This document shows, piece after piece, positions 6,824 to 19,602 of a stretch of 32,000 nucleotides of DNA. The notes below the pieces were generated by a model, which ran no database searches, was not told the DNA's origin, and saw only the letters and a list, made by a program, of their open reading frames with translations. Within the stretch, counting starts at the first letter, position 1. Every line of letters starts with the position of its first letter. This stretch comes from Candidatus Saccharimonadota bacterium (GTDB lineage Archaea; Nanobdellota; Nanobdellia; Pacearchaeales; GW2011-AR1). The stretch is taken from assembly GCA_049511795.1 (NCBI GenBank), contig JBEKXS010000001.1, forward strand, positions 300,001 to 332,000, in the 5' to 3' direction. The position numbers and the translations under genes are program-made.

Positions 6824-7243
6824 CTATTTTATTCCCAATTTTTCAAGCTTATTCTGAACATGGTTAAATAGTGTTGTTGATATTATTGCCTTGTGATTTC
6901 CGTCAAAAGTCTGGTTATTGAACTTAATTTTCCCTATATAAGTGAAATTCTTAAGTATCTTTTTAAGTCCATTAACGGAAAGTTTATGCTTTTGGGCAAC
7001 TTTTCTTAGACTAATATTATTTTCTAGAAATTCCTCAAAAATCTCCTGAATCTCAATGTAATTTTCAGCAGGAATTAGTTTTTTGTCTTCAATTTTGTAG
7101 CCAAATGGGGCTCTGGACATCAAATTTCCTTTTGTTGCGCTTTTAATCATGGACTTCTTTTGGTTTTCTTTTATTATTTTAGATTTTTCAAGCTCTTTTC
7201 TTAATTCCTCATTTTCTATTCTAAGCTTTTCAAGTTCATCCAT
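6824..7243 (-). CDS. Serine-recombinase 'Recombinase' (DNA-binding) domain protein that lacks the resolvase catalytic domain; N-terminal coiled coil
   Basis: 139 aa. SRAPFGYKIEDKKLIPAENYIEIQEIFEEFL...ISLRKVAQKH...TYIGKIKFNN...GNHKAIISTTLFNHVQNKL follows the pattern of the Recombinase domain of large serine recombinases. The N-terminus is only a short heptad-rich segment (MDELEKLRIENEELRKELEK). Confidence 0.6.
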   Translation of the reverse strand: MDELEKLRIENEELRKELEKSKIIKENQKKSMIKSATKGNLMSRAPFGYKIEDKKLIPAENYIEIQEIFEEFLENNISLRKVAQKHKLSVNGLKKILKNFTYIGKIKFNNQTFDGNHKAIISTTLFNHVQNKLEKLGIK

Positions 7244-7315: not shown

Positions 7316-7687
7316 TTGAGTAAGAGAATTTACGTTGGAAATCTGCCATGGAGCATAACTTATGAAAAGCTTAAGGTTCTTTTTTCTTCTTTTGGCGAAA
7401 TTGAACAAGCTTTGGTCATAGCTAACAGGGAAACCGGAAGATCCAGGGGTTTCGGATTTGTCACATTCAAAGATGATAAAGCAGCAGATACTGCAATAAA
7501 AGAAATGAGCAACAAGGAAGTTGAAGGAAGAGTTCTTGTTGTAAAAGAAGCAACTCCTATGGGAGAAAAGTCTGAAGAAAAAAGGGAAATAAGAGAAGAG
7601 GTTACTGAAGAAAAACCTCGCAAAGCCAGAAAAAGAAAAGAGAAAAAAGAAGAAAAACCAGATGAGGGGTCATTTGCAGAAGAGTAA
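7316..7687 (+). CDS. RRM (RNP-type) RNA-binding protein with a K/E-rich C-terminal tail
   Basis: RNP-2 IYVGNL and RNP-1 RGFGFVTF are both present. TTG start, with GGAGG at 7306-7310 five nt upstream. The tail reads KSEEKREIREEVTEEKPRKARKRKEKKEEK. Confidence 0.85.
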   Translation: MSKRIYVGNLPWSITYEKLKVLFSSFGEIEQALVIANRETGRSRGFGFVTFKDDKAADTAIKEMSNKEVEGRVLVVKEATPMGEKSEEKREIREEVTEEKPRKARKRKEKKEEKPDEGSFAEE

Positions 7688-9131: not shown

Positions 9132-9764
9132 TCACTCAAATCTGACAGAAATGCACCAAGGCTGGTTGTAAACTGATTTCAAAAGAGATTCTATATTCTT
9201 TTTCTTGCCTTCTATTACATAAGTGAATGTAACTGCCTGATCTTTTTTATTGAGATTTGTATTATAAAGATAAAATTCTGTGGTGTATTTACCTAAAATA
9301 TTCATTATTTTGTTTTTTGGAACAAGACCTTTTGTCTGGATTACTATCTTTCTTCTGTAAGAATTTATTGCATGTTTATCAAAATATTTATCAAAAAAAG
9401 CTACAATCCAAACCATAATGTATATTATTCCTGCACTGAGATACTCTCCTAATCCTATAGATAAACCAAAAATTGCGAAAAACCATATGCTTGCTGCCGT
9501 TGTAAAACCAAAAACCTTGTCAGATTCTTTTATCATAGCTCCTGCACCAAGGAAACCAATACCTGTTACAATTGCACCTAAAAGCCCTATACTATTCTGA
9601 ATTTGAAGGTCAACAGCTATTAAAGCAAGAGCGCATGAGCCTACTGCAATAAGTATAAATGTTCCAAAACCAACTGGCTTATGACTTTTCTGCCTATTGA
9701 AGCCATAGGCAAATGAAGCAAGAAAAACAATCAAAAATCTTATTAAAACTATTGTCTGATCCAT
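9132..9764 (-). CDS. MgtC/SapB family membrane protein
   Basis: 210 aa. The N-terminal multi-TM region has FAYGFNRQKSHKPVGFGTFILIAVGSCAL, resembling the MgtC signature. A soluble C-terminal domain follows. Confidence 0.7.
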   Translation of the reverse strand: MDQTIVLIRFLIVFLASFAYGFNRQKSHKPVGFGTFILIAVGSCALALIAVDLQIQNSIGLLGAIVTGIGFLGAGAMIKESDKVFGFTTAASIWFFAIFGLSIGLGEYLSAGIIYIMVWIVAFFDKYFDKHAINSYRRKIVIQTKGLVPKNKIMNILGKYTTEFYLYNTNLNKKDQAVTFTYVIEGKKKNIESLLKSVYNQPWCISVRFE

Positions 9765-12541: not shown

Positions 12542-12907
12542 TTAATCAAAATCTAAAGATTTGAAGATTTTAATAACTCTGTTAATATCGTCTTTGCTTA
12601 AAGTCTTAAAAATTTCGGGTTTTTCTATTCTTAGTTTTTCTAATGCTTGAGGTAGAATAGTCATGGTTCCATTCTCTTTTATTTTAATATATGACTCAAA
12701 TTCTTCTTTATAATTTGGAGCGAATCTGTGACAGTTTCTACATAAGGTTATTAAATTATTTATATTATCTTTACCTTCAAAGACTAATGGTGTTATGTGA
12801 TGCACTTCTAGCTTATTACCAGTTTCATCATTTAACCGGCATTTTTGGCATGTAAATTTATCTCTTTTTAGTGCTTGTTTTCTTAAAGTTTGGTTTCTTG
12901 TTTTCAT
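12542..12907 (-). CDS. HNH endonuclease
   Basis: CQKCRLNDETGNKLEVHHITPLVFEGKDNINNLITLCRNCHRF shows CxxC...HH...N...N...CxxCH. The ATG at 12907 is one nucleotide after the xerA stop (TAA-A-ATG). Confidence 0.8.
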   Translation of the reverse strand: MKTRNQTLRKQALKRDKFTCQKCRLNDETGNKLEVHHITPLVFEGKDNINNLITLCRNCHRFAPNYKEEFESYIKIKENGTMTILPQALEKLRIEKPEIFKTLSKDDINRVIKIFKSLDFD

Positions 12908-12908
12908 T

Positions 12909-13736
12909 TTACAAACTATCAATCGGACTTTTTATTTTCTTTAATTCTTCCTGACTAATATGGGTGTAAATCTGTGTCGTGTTTAGGTCTGCATGGCCCA
13001 AAAGCTCTTGGATTTTCCTTATGTCTGTGTTATTTTCCAGAAGATGTGTTGCAAAGCTATGCCTTAATGTATGTGGGTGTACACTCTTTTTTATTCCTGC
13101 TTTCTGTGCTGATTTAACAACTATTTTTTGGATATTTCTGGAAGATAAAGGACCTTTTGCTCCTGTGAAAAGATATTCCTGGTTGTTTTCTTTCTGCATT
13201 TCTGCTTGTTTCTTTAGTCTTAATGCAAGAGTTTCTGGTATATTGAATGTTCTGTCTTTTCTTCCTTTTCCCTGCCTTATCTGACCTATGCCCTCTTCAA
13301 AGTTGATCTCTTTAATTTTCAGGCCTGTTAGCTCAGATACCCTCATTCCACAAGCGTAGAGCATTGAAATCATAAGTCTGCTTTTTTTGTTTTCTGTAGA
13401 ATCAATCAGTGCCTTGATCTCTTCTTTTGTAAGAACAGCTGGAATTTTTCTTTCTCTTTTTGGGCGTTTGATGTTCTCTGTTGGGTTTCTCTGGAAAACA
13501 ACAGAATAGGCATATTTTATTGCAGAAAGGAAAAGCACAATTGATGAAGATGTTTTGTCTGATAGATTTTGAGCCATAAATGCCTTAATGTCATCCTGAT
13601 CTATTGCCTCAGGGCTTTTATTTAAGAAATCCAGGAGTTTTTGATTTGCAGTTACATAGTTCCTAACTGTATAGTCTGAGTTCTTGGATATCTTTAATTC
13701 TGTTTCCAACTTTTTCAGAAACACTTCTTTTTCCAT
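12909..13736 (-). CDS. xerA: Tyrosine recombinase, XerA/XerCD-like
   Basis: 275 aa. An N-terminal SAM-like core-binding domain is followed by a catalytic domain with R (CGMRVSEL), HxxR (HTLRHSFATH), H (LLGHADL) and Y (TQIYTH). Confidence 0.9.
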   Translation of the reverse strand: MEKEVFLKKLETELKISKNSDYTVRNYVTANQKLLDFLNKSPEAIDQDDIKAFMAQNLSDKTSSSIVLFLSAIKYAYSVVFQRNPTENIKRPKRERKIPAVLTKEEIKALIDSTENKKSRLMISMLYACGMRVSELTGLKIKEINFEEGIGQIRQGKGRKDRTFNIPETLALRLKKQAEMQKENNQEYLFTGAKGPLSSRNIQKIVVKSAQKAGIKKSVHPHTLRHSFATHLLENNTDIRKIQELLGHADLNTTQIYTHISQEELKKIKSPIDSL

Positions 13737-13832: not shown

Positions 13833-14207
13833 TTAGATGAAAGGATCTCTTCCAACTCTTCTTCTTTTAATTTCTGCCGCTCTTTCGACTAATGATTTAT
13901 CTGAATTTTCTAATTCTGTTAACTTAGGTAAGCTTTGTGCACGTGCTTCAAGTGTTGATTTCTCAACTGCTGCATCATATCTCTTCCTAAATTCTGATTT
14001 AAGGTCAAGGGTATGAATATATTCTTTAACAAAAATTCTGTATTTTGGGTTTAGAGAAACTTGTGCCATTTCTTCTGGGGACATGCCTAAGCTAGGTAAA
14101 TCAACCCCTAATGAGCGATAATAATCAGCCCTTGATTCTGCAAATTTATTCCTTTTTATTGCCAATATCCTCATTATTCTCTTAAATTCTGGAGAGAGAT
14201 TATCCAT
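13833..14207 (-). CDS. Hypothetical helical protein
   Basis: 124 aa ORF, co-directional with and upstream of xerA. No motif recognised. Confidence 0.5.
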   Translation of the reverse strand: MDNLSPEFKRIMRILAIKRNKFAESRADYYRSLGVDLPSLGMSPEEMAQVSLNPKYRIFVKEYIHTLDLKSEFRKRYDAAVEKSTLEARAQSLPKLTELENSDKSLVERAAEIKRRRVGRDPFI

Positions 14208-14372
14208 AAAACACTGAAAAAGCTGAAGTTTTTAAGAATTTATATAATAAAAGAGACAGACTTCAAAGTATTCTGAAATAATTATGACCCTTCTTGTGCA
14301 ATTAGGTCATCTTAATGAAGACGTTGGAATAAAGTTAAAGTAAAATAAAAAACAAATTAGAGTAACTAGGAC

Positions 14373-14540
14373 TTATCTCTTTTTAGATCCGTAGTTTCTC
14401 ATGAGCTTGCCAATTCCCATTACTAGGAATGATAGGCCTATCAACCAACTTGATAGTGTTACTCCTATATCCAAATTGAGTAAAGGCAATAGCCACAATA
14501 CTCCAATAAGAGTAACAAGCCAGGCACTTAGTTTTGCCAT
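14373..14540 (-). CDS. Small two-TM membrane protein (55 aa; below the ORF-track cut-off)
   Basis: Manual translation: MAKLSAWLVTLIGVLWLLPLLNLDIGVTLSSWLIGLSFLVMGIGKLMRNYGSKKR. A GGAGGT Shine-Dalgarno (complement of 14551-14556) lies 10 nt upstream of the ATG. Confidence 0.45.
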   Translation of the reverse strand: MAKLSAWLVTLIGVLWLLPLLNLDIGVTLSSWLIGLSFLVMGIGKLMRNYGSKKR

Positions 14541-14776
14541 TTAAATTCATACCTCCTTTCGTTCAAGTTATAGGAAAAAAGAGATTATAAACATTTCGAA
14601 AGCTAGTGAAAAAGGTTGCAAAAATATATGAGAAAAAAGAGCAAAAAAACAGCATTTTCAGACTATTTTCAGGGAAAAGAGGGTTTGTCGACGGAATTTT
14701 AATATTTTGATGCAAATTTTTTGCAAGAATTTTTGTTTTGGGCGAGTTTTGTGCACTAAGGTTAGCTTTGTGCATA

Positions 14777-14889
14777 GGTGTTTAGAGGTCGCTGTTTGGT
14801 GTTTGTTGGAGTAGAGTGCTGTTTGATGATGTTTAAACAGGCTGTTTGGGGCTGTTTATAGGTGTTTTTTAAGACATTTTTGTCTGTTT
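14777..14889 (+). repeat. Iteron array: nine same-orientation copies of G[C/G/A]TGTTT (the last copy is TCTGTTT)
   Basis: Copies start at 14777, 14791, 14798, 14818, 14828, 14841, 14851, 14861 and 14883. Several are spaced about 10 bp apart. Nearby are a TTTGTGCA direct repeat (14748, 14767) and the palindrome TGCAAATTTTTTGCA (14711-14725). Confidence 0.65.
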
Positions 14890-14965
14890 TTGGAGTTTTG
14901 AAAAGGGTGTGGATAAAAATGGATTTTAGCTAAAAAATAGAGAATTTTCGTCGGGAAAAGAAAAG

Positions 14966-14975
14966 ATATTTAAAC
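14966..14975 (+). promoter_or_regulatory. Putative TATA box with a purine-rich BRE for the 14996 gene (leaderless)
   Basis: GGAAAAGAAAAGATATTTAAAC has its TATA-like element centred about 26 nt upstream of the ATG at 14996. Confidence 0.35.
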
Positions 14976-14995
14976 TATATTTCTTAAGATAATGT

Positions 14996-15604
14996 ATGTT
15001 TGGGTGGCTTTTTGGTAAAAAAGAGAATGAAGCACTAAAAGAGGACACAAAAAAAGGATTTGATTCTGTCAAAAAAGACATAAATTCTGTTGTTGGATGG
15101 ATTAAACACCTTGATTCTGAAGGAAATTCTATGAAAAAAGAAATTAATGAGCTAAAAGAAGCTTTATCGTCGATACAAAATGACATGGAAGGGATGAAAA
15201 ATGTTGTTGCAATAATGAATGAGCTAAGTCCAAAGGCAAAAAATCAAACAGCTAAACAGCTGTTTAACAAACAACCCTCTGTTTATGCTGTTCAAACAGG
15301 TGTTCAAACAGGTGTTCAAACACCAAATTTTGACCAATTTTCAGTAACAGAAAGAGCAATTATTTGGGTACTTTTAAATTCTGATTTAAAATTAGGATAT
15401 GATGATCTTGCTGCAATGCTTGGAAAAGAGAGATCAACAATAAGGGGGCATTTGAACAGAATAAAACAGAAAAGTACAGGATTAATAGAAGAAATCGTTG
15501 AGAAAAATGGGAAAAAAAGGGTATTTGTACCTGAAGAAGTGAAGGAAAAACTATTGAAAAGGGTAAAAGTGAGGCTTAAAGAAGGCAAAAAAGACAAAAA
15601 ATAG
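14996..15604 (+). CDS. Coiled-coil / linker / C-terminal winged-HTH DNA-binding protein (uncharacterised family)
   Basis: 202 aa. N-terminal heptad-rich region (FDSVKKDINSVVGWIKHLDSEGNSMKKEINELKEAL), a VQTGVQTGVQT linker, an HTH (SVTERAIIWVLL...LGYDDLAAMLGKERSTIRGHLNRIKQK) and a basic tail. Confidence 0.7.
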   Translation: MFGWLFGKKENEALKEDTKKGFDSVKKDINSVVGWIKHLDSEGNSMKKEINELKEALSSIQNDMEGMKNVVAIMNELSPKAKNQTAKQLFNKQPSVYAVQTGVQTGVQTPNFDQFSVTERAIIWVLLNSDLKLGYDDLAAMLGKERSTIRGHLNRIKQKSTGLIEEIVEKNGKKRVFVPEEVKEKLLKRVKVRLKEGKKDKK

Positions 15605-15847
15605 AGGAAAATGAAGGTTTTAAGCTAAAAATTAAAGGAAGAAAGTCAAAAAGTGAGAGTTGTTGATAAGGATTTCAAAGGAAAAAATTAGATAAAAAAT
15701 CAAAAATAAGAGAAAACAAAGAAAAATTAAAGAAAGAGTGAAAAAATAAAAAGTCTGAAAGTCGGAAAAAGAGGGTTATTAAGGCTTTTAGGGGAAACTA
15801 TATTAATTAATCGGTATAACGATTAGTTGGTAATTTAATAAGAAGAA

Positions 15848-16660
15848 TTAAATGTCCCTTAGCTGCAGAATCGTCGACAAAGAGGCCACTTTCTTGAGGT
15901 TTTGGGAAACACTCAGCATGATCTGTTTGTTATTTATTTTTGTTTTATCGACGGGAATTCCTTTTTTAAGCAGCCTTCTTATGTAATCTCTTATAGAGCT
16001 TTCTGTAAGTTTTAGTTTCTCAGCAAGAACTCGGTATTCAACAGGGCCTTGTTCTTCCTCTAGCTGGTATAATGTCGAGAAAACCATGAGCTCCTGGTCT
16101 GTAAGATTCTTGAATTTAAGCCTGATTTCCTTCTTCAAACTGTCTAGGGAATCCAGCATTTTTGCAGCATCTTCTATAGGGCTTTGAGATTGGGTTTGAA
16201 AAATTGGCTTTTTAGGCTGGATTATAGGGGATTTTTGTGTGAAAACATGCTGTTGCAAGGGGTTTTTTGGCTTGTTCTCAAGCCAATTGTCTGTCTGTTG
16301 GTCTGTCTGTCTGTCTGTTGGAACCCCTTCATTTCCAGTGGAAAAACCTTGATTTTGGGGTTTTAAAGGGTTTAAAGGCCAACTATGTGTTGGAAAATGT
16401 GTTGGAGTTGTCTGATTTATATGTTGGTTTGCTGGATGTATTGTTGGTTGGTTTATTGGTAAATTTTGTGGTTTTGTGTTGATTTTTTTCAATTCCAAAG
16501 AAATTTTTTCAAGGATTTCACAGATTTTGCCCAAGTCTTGCTTCATTTCAGACATGTCTTTTTTTAAAACAGAAATATCAAAATTAAGAATGTCTATGTC
16601 TCTTTTAACATTCTGGAATGATTCTTTTATTTTGTTGCTGTCTCCTTCCTGTGAGTCCAT
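15848..16660 (-). CDS. Coiled-coil / long P,Q,T-rich linker / C-terminal winged-HTH protein; paralog of the 14996-15604 product
   Basis: 270 aa. The N-terminal FQNVKRDIDILNFDISVLKKDMSEMKQDL parallels FDSVKKDINSVV... in the partner. The linker is about 110 aa of low complexity. The HTH reads LTDQELMVFSTLYQLEEEQGPVEYRVLAEKLKLTESSIRDYIRRLLKKG. Confidence 0.7.
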   Translation of the reverse strand: MDSQEGDSNKIKESFQNVKRDIDILNFDISVLKKDMSEMKQDLGKICEILEKISLELKKINTKPQNLPINQPTIHPANQHINQTTPTHFPTHSWPLNPLKPQNQGFSTGNEGVPTDRQTDQQTDNWLENKPKNPLQQHVFTQKSPIIQPKKPIFQTQSQSPIEDAAKMLDSLDSLKKEIRLKFKNLTDQELMVFSTLYQLEEEQGPVEYRVLAEKLKLTESSIRDYIRRLLKKGIPVDKTKINNKQIMLSVSQNLKKVASLSTILQLRDI

Positions 16661-16732
16661 CGTTTTTTGAAATAATGCCCATATAAAAAGTTAAGTCTCT
16701 TTCAGTATACATATTTGCCCAATAACTGAAAA

Positions 16733-17014
16733 TTATTCTTTCTCAGGTGCGCCAATTGATTTGTAAGCGCTATATACTGAATCACTGAGCTTCCATCTTG
16801 ACCTTTTCATGTAGTCTTTTCCCTTGGAATTCTTCTTGATTTCAAGAACAAGGGCTTTCTTCTTCAGGTCAAGGAGAAGTGCTTTGACAAATTCCTCATC
16901 CCTGACAACTTCCTGGGCAATATGGGATGTAAAATCAGATCTTGGTGAGATAGAATAAAGGAATGCGAGTATTTGCTCTGAGATTTTATCTTTCTTATTG
17001 TTAGATATATTCAT
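16733..17014 (-). CDS. Small winged-helix DNA-binding protein
   Basis: 93 aa. ISEQILAFLYSISPRSDFTSHIAQEVVRDEEFVKALLLDLKKKALV is a typical wHTH layout (H1-H2-recognition helix-wing). Confidence 0.5.
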   Translation of the reverse strand: MNISNNKKDKISEQILAFLYSISPRSDFTSHIAQEVVRDEEFVKALLLDLKKKALVLEIKKNSKGKDYMKRSRWKLSDSVYSAYKSIGAPEKE

Positions 17015-17041
17015 AGAAAAGAGCTGTTTCTTAATTTTAAA

Positions 17042-17470
17042 TTACTTTTCTTTTTTCTCTTCTGTATTCTCGTTGCTTACAACAGGCATAGGCATGTGTG
17101 TAGGAAGATTCATTTCATCTTCCAATTCAAGGGCCTTTATTGTTGCCTTTCTAAGAATTATATTGAAAACAACATTTCTGAACTCGTCTGGAAGTTTCTT
17201 TTTCTTCCAGTCTCTTAAAGTGTCTTTTGCCTGCTGCTCTTCTAAAGAAAGGATTATTGTGCCTTTAAGGTCGATTTTAGCTATTTCTGGGTCGTATTTA
17301 ACAGTGTAAATAAAGTCAATTTGAATTGGCTTTTCCTCGCCCTTCAAAATATTATCTTTAAGCTCTTCAATATCTTCAATATCTATGTTGGAATTGACGC
17401 TTAATTCTCCCTGTTTTCCTTTGAGTCTTTCAACACTTATCTTACTAAAATTAAATCCCAATATTCTCAT
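17042..17470 (-). CDS. Hypothetical protein (weak resemblance to a SecB-like chaperone fold)
   Basis: 142 aa. Beta-rich N-terminal half, then VVFNIILRKATIKALELEDEMNLPTHMPMP, which is reminiscent of the SecB C-terminal helix/loop. Pattern-level similarity only. Confidence 0.5.
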   Translation of the reverse strand: MRILGFNFSKISVERLKGKQGELSVNSNIDIEDIEELKDNILKGEEKPIQIDFIYTVKYDPEIAKIDLKGTIILSLEEQQAKDTLRDWKKKKLPDEFRNVVFNIILRKATIKALELEDEMNLPTHMPMPVVSNENTEEKKEK

Positions 17471-17585
17471 GAAAAGTAGAAATGTAAGGTATTTTTAAAG
17501 TTTTAGTAATTTTAAAAATAATATCAATAGAATGAGAATATTCTTTACAATGAAAGATAATCTGGCTTAATTTAGAACTGTCTGA

Positions 17586-17846
17586 TTAAACTAAATCTTC
17601 TTCTGAAACTATCACAAAGTCCCCTATTGCTATGATAGAATTGTAAGGAACAAGAAGCTCATTTGATGAGGTCTTTTCCAGGTTCAAATTTCTCGTATAA
17701 GGGGTAGAATCTTTCACTACCAAACTTATAAGCTCACCTGATTTTGTCTCAAAGGTGACGTCCCTGACAAAGCCCAGTCTCTTTCCTTCTTTAGTCACAA
17801 TCATCTTTCCTACTATACTTCTAAAGGGATTTTTATCGCCTTGCAT
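17586..17846 (-). CDS. PRC-barrel domain protein
   Basis: 86 aa. GKMIVTKEGKRLGFVRDVTFETKSGELISLVV...LVPYNSIIAIGDFVIV matches the PRC-barrel pattern common in archaea. Confidence 0.7.
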   Translation of the reverse strand: MQGDKNPFRSIVGKMIVTKEGKRLGFVRDVTFETKSGELISLVVKDSTPYTRNLNLEKTSSNELLVPYNSIIAIGDFVIVSEEDLV

Positions 17847-17947
17847 GCAAAACTGAGAAAGAAATAATATTTAAACTTTTCTGTAAAATTAAATAGATTT
17901 CAGAGGATATGAAAGAAACAGATAAAAGAGAAGAATTAAAGGAAAAC

Positions 17948-18356
17948 ACACCCTCACCCCCTTATTTCCCATAGAAGTATTTAAAAAGAAAAAATTGATT
18001 TTTTTATTTATATTATTTATTTAAAAAAATTTATATTATATAGTATATAGATATATTATATTTTATTATTATATTATAATTATTTACTATAATTTAGTTA
18101 TTTTATCTTATTTTCTTTAAAATTTATTATTAATTTAATTAAGATAATTAATAATTTAATATAACCTAATTAAAATTTTTCTTAGCTAATTCTTGTTAAG
18201 GACTAAAATCCAAAAAATCAAGCAAAAATCCTTTTCCACATGAAATTGAGGCGTTCTTCTTTATTAGTAGTCATAAGTGTTTATATAAAGAATTATTTTT
18301 TTGCCGTTACAAAATATTTCAGGCTTAATTTCTCCACAAGAAACATACGTGTGAGG
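17948..18356. other. Predicted chromosomal replication origin (oriC): ORB-like boxes flanking an A+T-rich unwinding element
   Basis: By my count 18001-18180 holds only 9 G/C in 180 nt. On the left the minus strand reads CTTCTATGGGAAATAAGGGGGTGAGGG (17948-17977). On the right are TTTCCACATGAAATTGAGGCG (18233-18253) and TCTCCACAAGAAACATACGTGTGAGG (18329-18356). orc1/cdc6 lies immediately downstream. Confidence 0.6.
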
Positions 18357-18390
18357 TATAAGCAGGAAATTAAGGGCGAAAAGAGAGAAA

Positions 18391-19602
18391 ATGAAAGCAG
18401 AACTAGACAAAATATTTGAATCTTTCGACGGAAACAGAATCTTCAAAGACAAATCTATTTTGCAAAGCAATTACAGGCCTGAAGAAATTCCGCACAGGGA
18501 AGAACAGATAAAACAAGTTGCTTCAATACTTGCTCCAGTTCTCAGGGGAGAAAGAACAAGCAATCTTTTTCTTTACGGGAAAACAGGTTCTGGAAAAACA
18601 CTTTCAATTCTCTATGTTAGAGATGAACTGCTGAAAAGGGCAAAGAAAGACAGCGACTTCAACCTAAGAATAGAATACCTAAACTGCAAGCTGAAAAAGG
18701 TTTCTGACACAGAATACAGGATTCTTGCTGAAATGATTAAGAAGCTTGGCGGAGAAGTGCCAAATACTGGATTGCCAACAGAGACAGTTTACAGCAAGTT
18801 TATAGAAATGGTTGACAAAGAGAAACAATTCCTTGTCTTTATTTTGGATGAAATAGACCAAGCTGTAAAAAAAATTTCAAGCGACTTTCTTTACAATCTG
18901 ACAAGGCTTAACTCTGAATTGTCAAAATCACAGATTTGCATTGTTGGAATAAGCAATGACCTTACTTTCCTAGACAACCTTGACCCAAGAGTAAGAAGCT
19001 CTCTTTCTGAAGAAGAAATTGTATTTCCACCATATAATGCATTACAACTCCAGGAGATTCTTAACAAAAGAGCTGAAAACGCATTCAAAGAAAAGGTTGT
19101 TCAGGAAGGTGTCATCGCAAAATGCGCTGCATTTGCTGCAAGGGAGCATGGAGATGCAAGAAGAGCCCTTGACCTGCTCAGAATTGCAGGAGAGATTGCA
19201 GAAAGGGATAATTCAAAGAAAATAATGATGAAATATCTTGATGAGGCAAACACGAAAATTGAAAGGGACAAAATTCTTGATGTAATAAAGACAGAGCCAA
19301 AGCAATTCCAGTATGTTTTGCACTCAATAATAAATTTATCTGAAAAAAATAACGGCAGTCCTGTTTTCACAGGAGATGTTTACAATTTTTATGAGGAAGT
19401 ATGCCTGAAAAACAAGGCAGAAGTTTTGACCCAAAGGCGTGTTTCAGACATTATACAGGAATTTGACATGCTGGGAATAATCAATGTCAAGGTTGTTTCA
19501 AAAGGAAGAGGGGGAAGAATGAGGGAAATTAAACTTGCAATTGCAAAATCAATTACTGAGAAAGCAAAGGAAATAATTGAAGAATCTTTGAGATATAATT
19601 AA
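18391..19602 (+). CDS. cdc6: Orc1/Cdc6 replication initiator (AAA+ with a C-terminal winged helix)
   Basis: 403 aa. Walker A GKTGSGKT, Walker B FILDEID, sensor regions, GDARRALDLLR, and a C-terminal wHTH. Confidence 0.95.
   Translation: MKAELDKIFESFDGNRIFKDKSILQSNYRPEEIPHREEQIKQVASILAPVLRGERTSNLFLYGKTGSGKTLSILYVRDELLKRAKKDSDFNLRIEYLNCKLKKVSDTEYRILAEMIKKLGGEVPNTGLPTETVYSKFIEMVDKEKQFLVFILDEIDQAVKKISSDFLYNLTRLNSELSKSQICIVGISNDLTFLDNLDPRVRSSLSEEEIVFPPYNALQLQEILNKRAENAFKEKVVQEGVIAKCAAFAAREHGDARRALDLLRIAGEIAERDNSKKIMMKYLDEANTKIERDKILDVIKTEPKQFQYVLHSIINLSEKNNGSPVFTGDVYNFYEEVCLKNKAEVLTQRRVSDIIQEFDMLGIINVKVVSKGRGGRMREIKLAIAKSITEKAKEIIEESLRYN

Follow-up and report, generated by a model that had tools for sequence, protein, structure and literature searches.

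The window analysed here is a stretch of 32,000 nt (contig JBEKXS010000001.1 of assembly GCA_049511795.1, positions 300,001 to 332,000), and all coordinates given below are positions in it. Near its middle two genes of unassigned family face each other, gene A (14996-15604, + strand, 202 aa) and gene B (15848-16660, - strand, 270 aa). An earlier note on this DNA had described them as a convergent pair of coiled-coil, low-complexity-linker and winged-helix proteins, with a possible DNA-bridging or DNA-organising role. The open reading frames (ORFs), the convergent layout and the three-part architecture were borne out by heptad counts, AlphaFold2 models and Foldseek searches. Overlooked at that stage was that the linkers of both proteins appear to double as cis-acting DNA, which changes what the conservation of the linkers means. 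Of 268 GTDB species genomes with a relative of A, the 80 that matched best were compared at this locus, together with 3 other long contigs (83 loci, ~1.11 Mb of DNA in total).

Protein A begins with the motif MFGWFFGKK (N-terminus, + strand), which is invariant in an alignment of homologues. It is followed by a heptad helix (residues 15-77, 15038-15226) in unbroken register, with 83% of a/d positions hydrophobic vs 16% elsewhere, a disordered linker (residues 78-116, 15227-15343), and a winged helix (residues 117-187, 15344-15556) with a basic tail after it. The AlphaFold2 model, built from a 28-sequence alignment, comprised a helix at residues 3-77, disorder at 78-116 and the winged helix at 117-187, the last at a predicted local distance difference test score (pLDDT) of about 90. 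Foldseek searches of the PDB matched this winged helix to MarR/MepR/SlyA proteins and AbfR2 (E 1e-4 to 1e-3). Only one helix follows it in the model, and the flanking dimerisation helices of MarR are missing. A has no Pfam MarR match, and HTH_11 scored 13.1 bits, below the cut-off of 25. With the NCBIfam models NF053606/NF040939, A scored 20.1 bits against Sta1 (cut-off 80) and 13.6 against Lrs14 (cut-off 90), and the Sta1 alignment, over residues 116-192, covered 77 of 100 model positions. Judged by these profiles, whose scores lie far below the family cut-offs, A is a simple Lrs14/Sta1-like winged helix with a basic tail, closest to Lrs14/Sta1 and not fileable in a characterised family.

Protein B, which lacks the N-terminal motif of A, is built of a heptad helix (residues 4-61, 16478-16651), a disordered P/Q/T/N-rich linker (residues 62-160, 16181-16477) and a MarR-like module of helix, winged helix and two helices (residues 161-270, 15851-16180), all on the - strand. 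Its heptad register is unbroken over residues 8-61, with 94% of a/d positions hydrophobic vs 13% elsewhere. The AlphaFold2 model (28-sequence alignment) placed helices at residues 4-61 and 161-184, disorder at 62-160, the winged helix at 188-251 and two short helices within 253-269. The top 11 Foldseek matches in the PDB were all MarR-type (MarR, YusO, MepR) and covered the MarR layout in full; for the C-terminal 110 residues, E was 1.4e-4 to 1e-3 and the target TM-score 0.45-0.55. By sequence, HTH_11 (PF08279) was above threshold (27.5 bits vs a cut-off of 25, residues 197-241). Pfam MarR (PF01047/PF12802; 15.0 bits vs 24.6), TrmB (18.8 vs 25.6), Lrs14 (18.2, cut-off 90) and Sta1 (16.4, cut-off 80) fell below theirs, as did weak matches to HTH_36, DnaD_N and RPA_C. 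A winged helix flanked by N- and C-terminal helices, which in the MarR fold make up the dimer interface, was found in B only, on predicted structure. The C-terminal part of B is thus modelled as a complete MarR-like module by fold, not by sequence score.

Both C-terminal modules therefore resemble MarR/MepR/AbfR2-type winged helices in the Foldseek searches of the AlphaFold models. Profile searches of the PDB with A, B and two proteins encoded upstream of B (p93 and p142, described below) gave no match below E 0.01, and scans of the same four proteins against Pfam, NCBIfam, PHROGs and PADLOC returned sub-threshold coiled-coil and helix-turn-helix noise, with HTH_11 in B as the sole exception. 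No library gave a confident full-length match or a well-characterised regulator family, in keeping with the earlier statement that the family is unrecognised. An ESCRT-III/CdvB-like or kleisin-like reading was rejected: the models contain a single helix with no hairpin or multi-helix core, and matches to Snf7, PspA or ScpA were lacking, in longer relatives as well.

The F-x-x-VK(K/R)DI start said to be shared by the two proteins was present as GFDSVKKDINS in A and SFQNVKRDIDI in B. BLASTP aligned 42 N-terminal residues of A and B (31% identity, E 0.007). Profile-profile comparison gave 90.6% with full alignments, and hhalign gave 94% (E 1.4e-7) with trimmed N-terminal alignments; the B profile scored A-family members at a median of 18.6 bits in a fixed register. 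The winged helices of A and B reached only 35-52% with each other, and below 1% with p93. The proposed paralogy is therefore partly supported, in that common descent of the N-terminal modules is indicated by these alignments and the winged helices seem only generically alike.

The linkers have the composition given in the earlier note, with VQTG repeats in A and, in B, a tract rich in P, Q, T and N. Neither is mere low complexity, as both hold invariant motifs. The DNA of the A linker carries an intragenic iteron array (15246-15325) with AAACA-SS-TGTT palindromes at 15254, 15294 and 15306 and additional half-units (half-site AAACAG), and the array encodes QTAKQLF...VQTGVQTGVQTP. The invariant VQTGVQTGVQTP is thus encoded by tandem palindromic iterons, and these units are identical to those of an iteron array upstream of A. 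In the window the linker DNA reads AAACAGCTAAACAGCTGTTTAAC...GCTGTTCAAACAGGTGTTCAAACAGGTGTTCAAACACC. VQTG is written as GTT CAA ACA GGT, giving TGTTCAAACAGG, a sequence that differs from the upstream core TGTTTAAACAGG at a single position. In the 1.11 Mb of locus DNA, 342 of the 356 copies of AAACA-SS-TGTT lie in these two places (249 in the linker part of A, ~3 per gene, and 93 upstream), with 14 in the other 1.08 Mb. Gene A has 3-5 units in tandem, and successive ones have a 12-bp period in 60 of 175 spacings. The centre of the unit varies between GG, GC and CC (GG and CC being mutual reverse complements), giving VQTG, VQTA and VQTP, and the arms stay fixed. A centre whose encoded residue changes between G, A and P, with arms that stay constant, fits recognition as double-stranded DNA; it does not fit selection on the peptide or on a single RNA strand.

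Codon use in the A motif was compared with the rest of the gene in 78 loci. Glycine was encoded by GGT in 100% of cases (n=100) vs 34% in the rest of the gene, alanine by GCT in 100% (n=48) vs 50%, glutamine by CAA in 99% vs 65%, threonine by ACA in 96% vs 61%, valine by GTT in 85% vs 44%, and proline by CCA in 73% vs 18%. A large inverted duplication of the upstream region with the A coding region was considered and rejected (local alignment score 54, within the shuffle range, maximum 57).

The array upstream of A (14750-14870), noted earlier as lying beside the genes, is real and conserved. It comprises an inverted repeat TGTGCAC-N13-GTGCA (14750-14774), the 7-mer GCTGTTT at 14791, 14818, 14841 and 14851, and a core TGTTTAAACAGGCTGTTTG (14830-14848). 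Within the core, TGTTTAAACAGGCTGTT (14830-14846) is invariant in 4 divergent loci; when up to 2 mismatches are allowed, 61 of 81 loci have it, placed about 175 nt ahead of the A start codon. The 7-mer reaches 12/kb in the array vs 0.36/kb elsewhere in the loci, a 33-fold enrichment. Its histogram over the 83 loci has only two peaks, one at the upstream array and one inside A at +200 to +350, where the linker peptide is encoded; in the loci examined it is absent from the A-B spacer and from the origin spacer described below. The inverted repeat, at the far end of the A upstream region and kept in 3 of 4 aligned loci, looks like a separate operator.

A promoter-proximal block (14946-14975, + strand) is conserved in the 80-locus alignment and consists of TTTTCGTCGG (14946-14955), an A-rich stretch and a TATA-like ATATTTAAAC (14966-14975). 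It lies so close to A that, were it the promoter, the leader would be very short or absent. The (TA)TCGTCGA at 14946-14955, just upstream of the TATA-like box, has a counterpart inside A (15164-15175, codons 57-59, TTA TCG TCG) that encodes LSS, where TCG, otherwise a rare serine codon, is used in 93-94% of cases. Two 25-nt bins, -50 to -26 with 33 copies and +150 to +174 with 49, hold 55% of the 149 copies of TCGTCGA/TCGACGA in the 1.11 Mb.

The linker of B contains a different element. An origin recognition box (ORB)-like sequence inside B (16322-16346, - strand) reads TTTTCCACTGGAAAT-GAA-GGGGTT in the sense of B and encodes FSTGNEGV; its dyad, TTCCAGTGGAAA, is a perfect palindrome (16332-16344), the only perfect TTCCANNGGAAA palindrome in the window. 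Across loci, FSTGNEGVPTDRQTD in B is encoded by an ORB-like TTCCACTGGAAA-N3-GGGG followed by an (ACAG)n run, and the invariant FSTGNEGVPTDRQTDRQTD by TTTTCCACTGGAAAT-GAA-GGGGTT-CCA-(ACAG)n. TTCC and GAA are the conserved cores of the Pyrococcus mini-ORB 13-mer TTCCAGTGGAACT of the Thermococcales (PMC1904270). Both cores are present in TTCCAGTGGAAA (TTCCAnnGGAAA type), the consensus over 82 loci being TATTTCCACTGGAAAT, and the dyad is followed by a G-rich extension, GAA-GGGG. The dyad pattern was found in just two places in the loci, inside B (~1 per locus) and in the spacer between the PRC-barrel gene and cdc6 (~1.8 per locus), against a background of ~0.03 per 100 nt, with similar consensus sequences at both. 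The B box, ~1.6 kb away from the closest of those beside cdc6, sits in coding DNA and has no AT-rich stretch next to it.

The codons that spell the box and its surroundings are nearly fixed. Gene-wide shares are given here for all B codons, motif included. Serine was TCC in 79/79 cases (15% gene-wide), the two glycines GGA in 77/77 (41%) and GGG in 79/80 (29%), valine GTT in 73/73 (48%), proline CCA in 61/61 (37%), aspartate GAC in 76/76 (39%) and glutamine CAG in 76/78 (36%). The (ACAG)n run (16289-16319, - strand) encodes TDRQTDQQTD; its codons are GAC in 99% (29% in the rest of the gene), CAG in 83% (29%), AGA in 100% and ACA in 100%, and ACAGACAGAC has 4 exact matches in the run and none elsewhere in the window. 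Run length is 0-41 nt, with modes of 15 and 31. Phase variation by the run was rejected as an explanation, the run being short, often interrupted and of two modal lengths, not hypervariable; in individual populations it is still conceivable. A further frozen part of the linker (16352-16426, - strand) carries TCCAACA-type direct repeats that encode PTH/PT motifs, with TCCAACA at ~1.9 per locus in the B linker vs 0.038 per 100 nt overall.

In a sliding measure over 9 codons, the maximum loss of codon entropy was 1.06 bits in A and 1.32 bits in B, and at most 0.40 bits in Cdc6, the PRC-barrel protein, p142 and p93. Within B, codons 79-127 lost 0.9-1.3 bits vs 0-0.25 bits in the winged-helix part, which is itself highly conserved. 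By this measure, frozen synonymous sites were confined to the DNA that codes for the linkers. An overlapping gene in another frame was rejected as the cause of the frozen codons, no alternative frame being open in more than 30 of 83 loci. An Rfam search found nothing in 14200-18400, even at E <=1. The invariant linker sequences thus appear to be conserved mainly as DNA, not as peptides.

Between the two genes lies the convergent spacer (15605-15847, 243 nt), 72% purine on the + strand, matching the purine-rich spacer of the earlier description; it has 26-31% G+C, and across loci its length ranges from 57 to 602 nt. It contains AAAAGTGAGAGTT at about 15648-15664, and AAAGTGAG was present in 65 of 82 A-B spacers. 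This motif, in the form AAAGTGAGAGTT, occurs twice in the window, at 15563-15577 in the end of A, where it encodes an invariant KVRV, and at ~15648-15664 in the spacer, 50-100 nt downstream. The KVRV-coding copy coincides with a peak of synonymous constraint at A residue 193. In the 1.11 Mb, 102 of the 116 copies of AAAGTGAGAGTT fall in bins between +475 and +725, and a long spacer in the divergent locus L084 (8650-9210) has ~8 copies. The motif might correspond to a small RNA or serve as a terminator or binding site.

Gene order around the pair, A> <B <p93 <p142 <PRC-barrel, a spacer of ~530 bp, then Cdc6> DP1>, was essentially invariant across the 80 GTDB species genomes and the 3 contigs, and the A-B pair with its synteny was kept in 82 of 83 loci. 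The pair and its neighbourhood therefore persist far outside this genome, and the lack of conserved synteny that would have spoken against the earlier reading was not seen. The genes upstream of B on the - strand are p93 (16733-17014), a small winged-helix-like protein with only weak MarR/MepR profile matches; p142 (17042-17470, 142 aa), with no family match; and the PRC-barrel protein (17586-17846; PRC domain E 1.9e-10). Their synteny was kept in nearly all loci, and B, p93, p142 and the PRC-barrel gene (upstream genes 16733-17846) are probably co-transcribed. A search of Pfam, NCBIfam, PHROGs, PADLOC and PDB profiles gave no match for p142, and its profile homologue search returned solely unnamed DPANN proteins with no Pfam domain. 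In L084 a p142 homologue (9280-9735) is convergent with a distant A-like gene at a place where B and p93 are missing; always present in the block as well, p142 is possibly the partner that stays with the A family most consistently.

The spacer that follows (17847-18390) resembles an origin. Its AT-rich part (18000-18199) has 7% G+C and is flanked by ORB-like dyads at 17965-17976 (- strand, then GGGGG) and 18234-18245 (+ strand), and cdc6 (18391-19602, + strand, with Cdc6 domains) comes directly after. In such spacers the dyad consensus is ATTTTCCATAAGAAAT-AA-AGGTG, then GGGG or TTTTTC (122 sites in 65 related loci, ~1.8 per spacer). An archaeal oriC beside its initiator gene is the canonical layout, which this spacer matches (PMC4010727), and the spacer between the PRC-barrel gene and cdc6 is a probable chromosomal replication origin. 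In Haloarcula a downstream ORB cluster has been proposed to restrain oriC2 (PMC4010727). For these DPANN lineages, full-text literature searches turned up no publication on replication origins or ORBs. Homology to haloarchaeal OapABC was rejected, these belonging to different families (small GTPase, DUF2073, DUF2072), and so was an SMC neighbour, the large adjacent ORF being PolD DP2. The pair lies about 1.2 kb from the origin-like spacer, and the two genes appear, from the conserved order, to be fixed members of a block that flanks one side of the probable origin. Among the roles that had been offered, that of an origin-proximal organiser is the most apt, the pair sitting ~1.2 kb from a 93% A+T, ORB-flanked spacer beside cdc6.

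The window encodes ribosomal proteins L21e, S13, S4, S11, L13 and S9, RNA polymerase subunits, tRNA-Leu and TyrRS, and also a XerA-type integrase, Orc1/Cdc6 and both PolD subunits. The replicon is a Pacearchaeota-type chromosome, not a plasmid. Searches of viral, plasmid and phage collections found no relatives of the pair; with the chromosomal gene content, this rules out the plasmid-maintenance role that had been among the suggestions. Relatives number 2490 for A, at 70-90% identity, and 2116 for B, at about 50-60% identity, and the named homologues of both come from metagenome-assembled genomes of Pacearchaeota, Woesearchaeota or Nanoarchaeota. An exhaustive search of 1.84 billion cluster representatives with the A profile gave just 284 clusters at E <=0.001, so the family of A is narrow. 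Under the best explanation, A and B are predicted chromosomal DNA-binding proteins confined to Nanoarchaeota-type DPANN archaea. Three contigs with the A-B block (L005, L016 and L019) were deposited under bacterial labels (Gammaproteobacteria, Bacillota and Patescibacteria), probably through binning contamination in those assemblies.

Distant relatives of A (E 1e-13 to 1e-9), those with source names being labelled Nanoarchaeia or Nanoarchaeota, have several features in common. Their N-terminus is hydrophobic and basic (MGFLDIFRKK, MIDFLRQLFGGKK, MFGFFKKKK); an F-x-x-VK-x-D-x6-W-I-x-H-L helix motif, present once or twice, a coiled coil and a winged helix recur, and the linker frequently carries repeats peculiar to the lineage (SFMNVQ, TAVQ). 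In the A-like gene of L084 the SFMNVQ repeats are encoded by a palindrome GTTCATGAAC, extended to AACGTTCATGAACGTT, of which 4 copies lie in the linker DNA and none elsewhere in 16.6 kb; its recognition helix is VTVRRHINDI vs STIRGHLNRI in A. The gene is convergent with the p142 homologue (E 3e-22), and neither B nor p93 lies within 8 kb. There is a hint here that repeat DNA and winged helix co-vary, as if the protein read its own gene, in a sample that is small and confounded by phylogeny. In one further relative, P0311, a response-regulator receiver domain (Pfam Response_reg, E 2e-15) is fused with VQT repeats and an A-type winged helix; it sits on a 2.4-kb contig and could be a chimera. Its arrangement suggests that VQT repeats plus winged helix form a transferable DNA-binding output unit.

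Three other features of the window were recorded. A 55-aa two-helix membrane protein with a weak DUF308 match (14373-14540, - strand) is divergent from A, with the iteron array between the two, and 29 related loci keep it, with 47-93% identity, about 470 to 1060 nt before the start of A. A 123-aa protein (7316-7687, + strand) has a strong eukaryote-type RNA recognition motif (RRM_1, 82.8 bits), which to our knowledge is uncommon in archaea. Small HNH-endonuclease and 'Recombinase'-domain ORFs (12542-12922 and 6824-7243) may be split remnants; in L003 the HNH-endonuclease and 'Recombinase' domains are in one 210-aa gene directly after the XerA-type integrase gene.

Taken together, these observations are best accommodated, tentatively and with somewhat less than even confidence, by a reading in which coiled-coil winged-helix proteins bind iterons around and inside A as oligomers and Orc1/Cdc6 binds inside B. 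The heptad helices would most likely make A and B dimers or higher oligomers, and one or both proteins would bind the AAACAG iterons cooperatively. The putative A promoter has an array on each side, one upstream and one intragenic, ~450 bp from each other; bound proteins would connect the two in a loop or bridge that controls A. Occupancy of the B box by Orc1/Cdc6 would tie the B operon or the architecture of the origin to the initiator, for which the ORB cluster in the dp1 gene of Thermococcales is a precedent (PMC1904270). A wider proposal, distinctly less probable and offered as a possibility, is that gene pair, origin and initiator form one self-referential control module for replication or segregation in genome-reduced DPANN archaea, with the linker DNA of A as an array read by A or B and the linker of B as an Orc1/Cdc6 box. 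On that view the two genes would themselves belong to the structure of the DNA that their products organise, and the DNA elements would dictate the protein sequence at these places.

Several points weigh against the favoured reading. p93, Cdc6 or a protein encoded elsewhere could bind the iterons. The 6-bp half-sites are separated by only 0-1 bp, which is tight for a classical winged-helix dimer, and the upstream array lies 150-200 nt upstream of the TATA-like box and does not overlap it. Taken by itself, the A segment of the window is predicted to fold well as RNA (z = -3.7). A distant relative in L086 has no intragenic repeats, though it lies 4.3 kb from cdc6, so such repeats do not mark the whole superfamily. 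The conserved synteny could stem from shared ancestry within one order and not from function.

The strongest competitor, itself unlikely, is that A and B are ordinary MarR/Lrs14-like regulators with targets elsewhere, and that the embedded elements are read by Cdc6 (at the B box), p93 or an unlinked factor in mutation-tolerant linker DNA near the origin. Both winged helices are generically MarR/Lrs14-like, the B box resembles known initiator sites and not a MarR operator, and p93 is a third small winged-helix-like protein in the block. That origin proximity can mislead is shown by the haloarchaeal 'origin-associated' Oap proteins, which turned out to act in vesicle formation (PMC10927574). Set against this, an iteron found almost only in and upstream of A is the classic layout of self-regulation, and the A-like gene of L084 has a private palindrome in its linker with no B or p93 nearby.

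Somewhat less probable again is an origin-proximal centromere or tether, with A forming a filament on the iterons, as TubR or ParR does, and its N-terminus anchoring it to membrane or division proteins in the manner of RacA or Noc. The 12-bp period of the tandem units and the position of two arrays close to the origin would suit such a filament. The N-terminal motif of A is invariant and recurs as MGFxxFF+KK in distant relatives; it resembles membrane-targeting ends of the MinE/SepF type. The block always includes a PRC-barrel gene, and PRC-barrel proteins act in archaeal division (bioRxiv 10.1101/2023.03.28.534520). In the other balance, a simple hydrophobic-moment calculation on the motif did not discriminate, B lacks the motif, and A is linked to the PRC-barrel protein by gene order only. 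No ParA, SegA or TubZ-type NTPase (nucleoside triphosphatase) was found in the window or in the gene tables of five loci (L001-L003, L084 and L086). Tandem repeats of the kind that mark a partition system are present upstream of A and inside A, as a putative centromere; membership in such a system fails for want of an accompanying NTPase in the window and the five gene tables, and the suggested role of partition adaptor finds no support there.

That the A-B region is an extended or second replicator is doubtful. The B box and the A iterons would flank a purine-rich unwinding or loading zone, and A and B would be accessory initiators like WhiP at Sulfolobus oriC3. An ORB-like box with a G-run does lie inside B, the arrays bracket ~1 kb that includes a strongly skewed A-rich spacer, and B has the weak HTH_36, DnaD_N and RPA_C matches. 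These matches are all below their cut-offs, however, B has just one full box, and the spacer, at 26-31% G+C, is far from the 7% of the stretch beside cdc6 and varies from 57 to 602 nt. Selection on the peptides (VQTG and TDRQ as short linear motifs) or on mRNA structure, with the DNA matches secondary, is very improbable. In its favour, the peptides do not vary across many species, linkers with repeats are seen again in distant relatives and the window A segment folds. Against it, synonymous sites are fixed, and the codon is often one of low frequency in that gene (TCC 15%, GAC 29-39%, CAG 29-36%), the encoded centre shifts between G, A and P with constant DNA arms, upstream DNA that is not translated contains these units too, RNAalifold, run on 81 distinct sequences of the A segment, returned no consensus structure, the predicted fold of one member had a compensatory change in 1 of 24 base pairs, and the B segment folded no better than shuffles (z = +1.1).

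Almost nothing is known of the control of replication, segregation or division in DPANN archaea, which are uncultured and have minimal genomes, and in the 80 best-matching of 268 GTDB species genomes the block beside cdc6 consists wholly of uncharacterised proteins. The pair offers concrete candidate protein-DNA pairings, namely A, B, p93 and Cdc6 with the iterons, the ORB-like box and (ACAG)n. The pair appears to be a clear case of cis-acting DNA that dictates an invariant peptide within a disordered part of a protein. Short motifs conserved in linkers should accordingly not be taken automatically for protein-interaction motifs.

Among known systems, the MarR regulators (MepR 3eco, MarR 3bpx, YusO 1s3j) share with the C-terminal 110 residues of B the order helix, winged helix, two helices, and the winged helix of A also matches them; A and B differ in the addition of a 60-75-residue N-terminal coiled coil and a long disordered linker, and no ligand pocket is evident. 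Residues 116-192 of A match Lrs14/Sta1 proteins (AbfR2, 6cmv) at 25-28% identity over 81-96 columns, both being a winged helix with a C-terminal helix, but Lrs14 proteins have ~100-120 residues and neither the N-terminal coiled coil nor the linker of A. TrmB likewise combines a winged helix with a coiled-coil oligomerisation helix, but its winged helix is N-terminal and its sugar-binding domain is absent in B. In TubR/tubC and ParR/parC a small helix or winged-helix protein is paired with tandem 11-12-bp repeats in two blocks around a promoter, and autoregulation is expected; the A iterons differ in their chromosomal setting, in the absence of a partner NTPase, in the location of one array in coding sequence and in units that are palindromic and not purely direct repeats. 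The closest parallel to the B box is the ORB/mini-ORB cluster inside dp1 of Thermococcales, ~1.5 kb from oriC, which is bound by Cdc6 in vivo and in vitro and conserved order-wide (PMC1904270). Both place initiator-box repeats with TTCC and GAA cores in a coding region at about that distance from oriC, with conservation across an order in each case, and the lineage studied here would join Thermococcales as the second in which an initiator box lies within a gene close to oriC. The B box may thus be a new instance of a known phenomenon, with a different location and a visible effect on the protein: it is a predicted Cdc6 site placed across oriC from cdc6, in the part of a regulator gene that codes for a disordered linker, where it fixes an invariant peptide.

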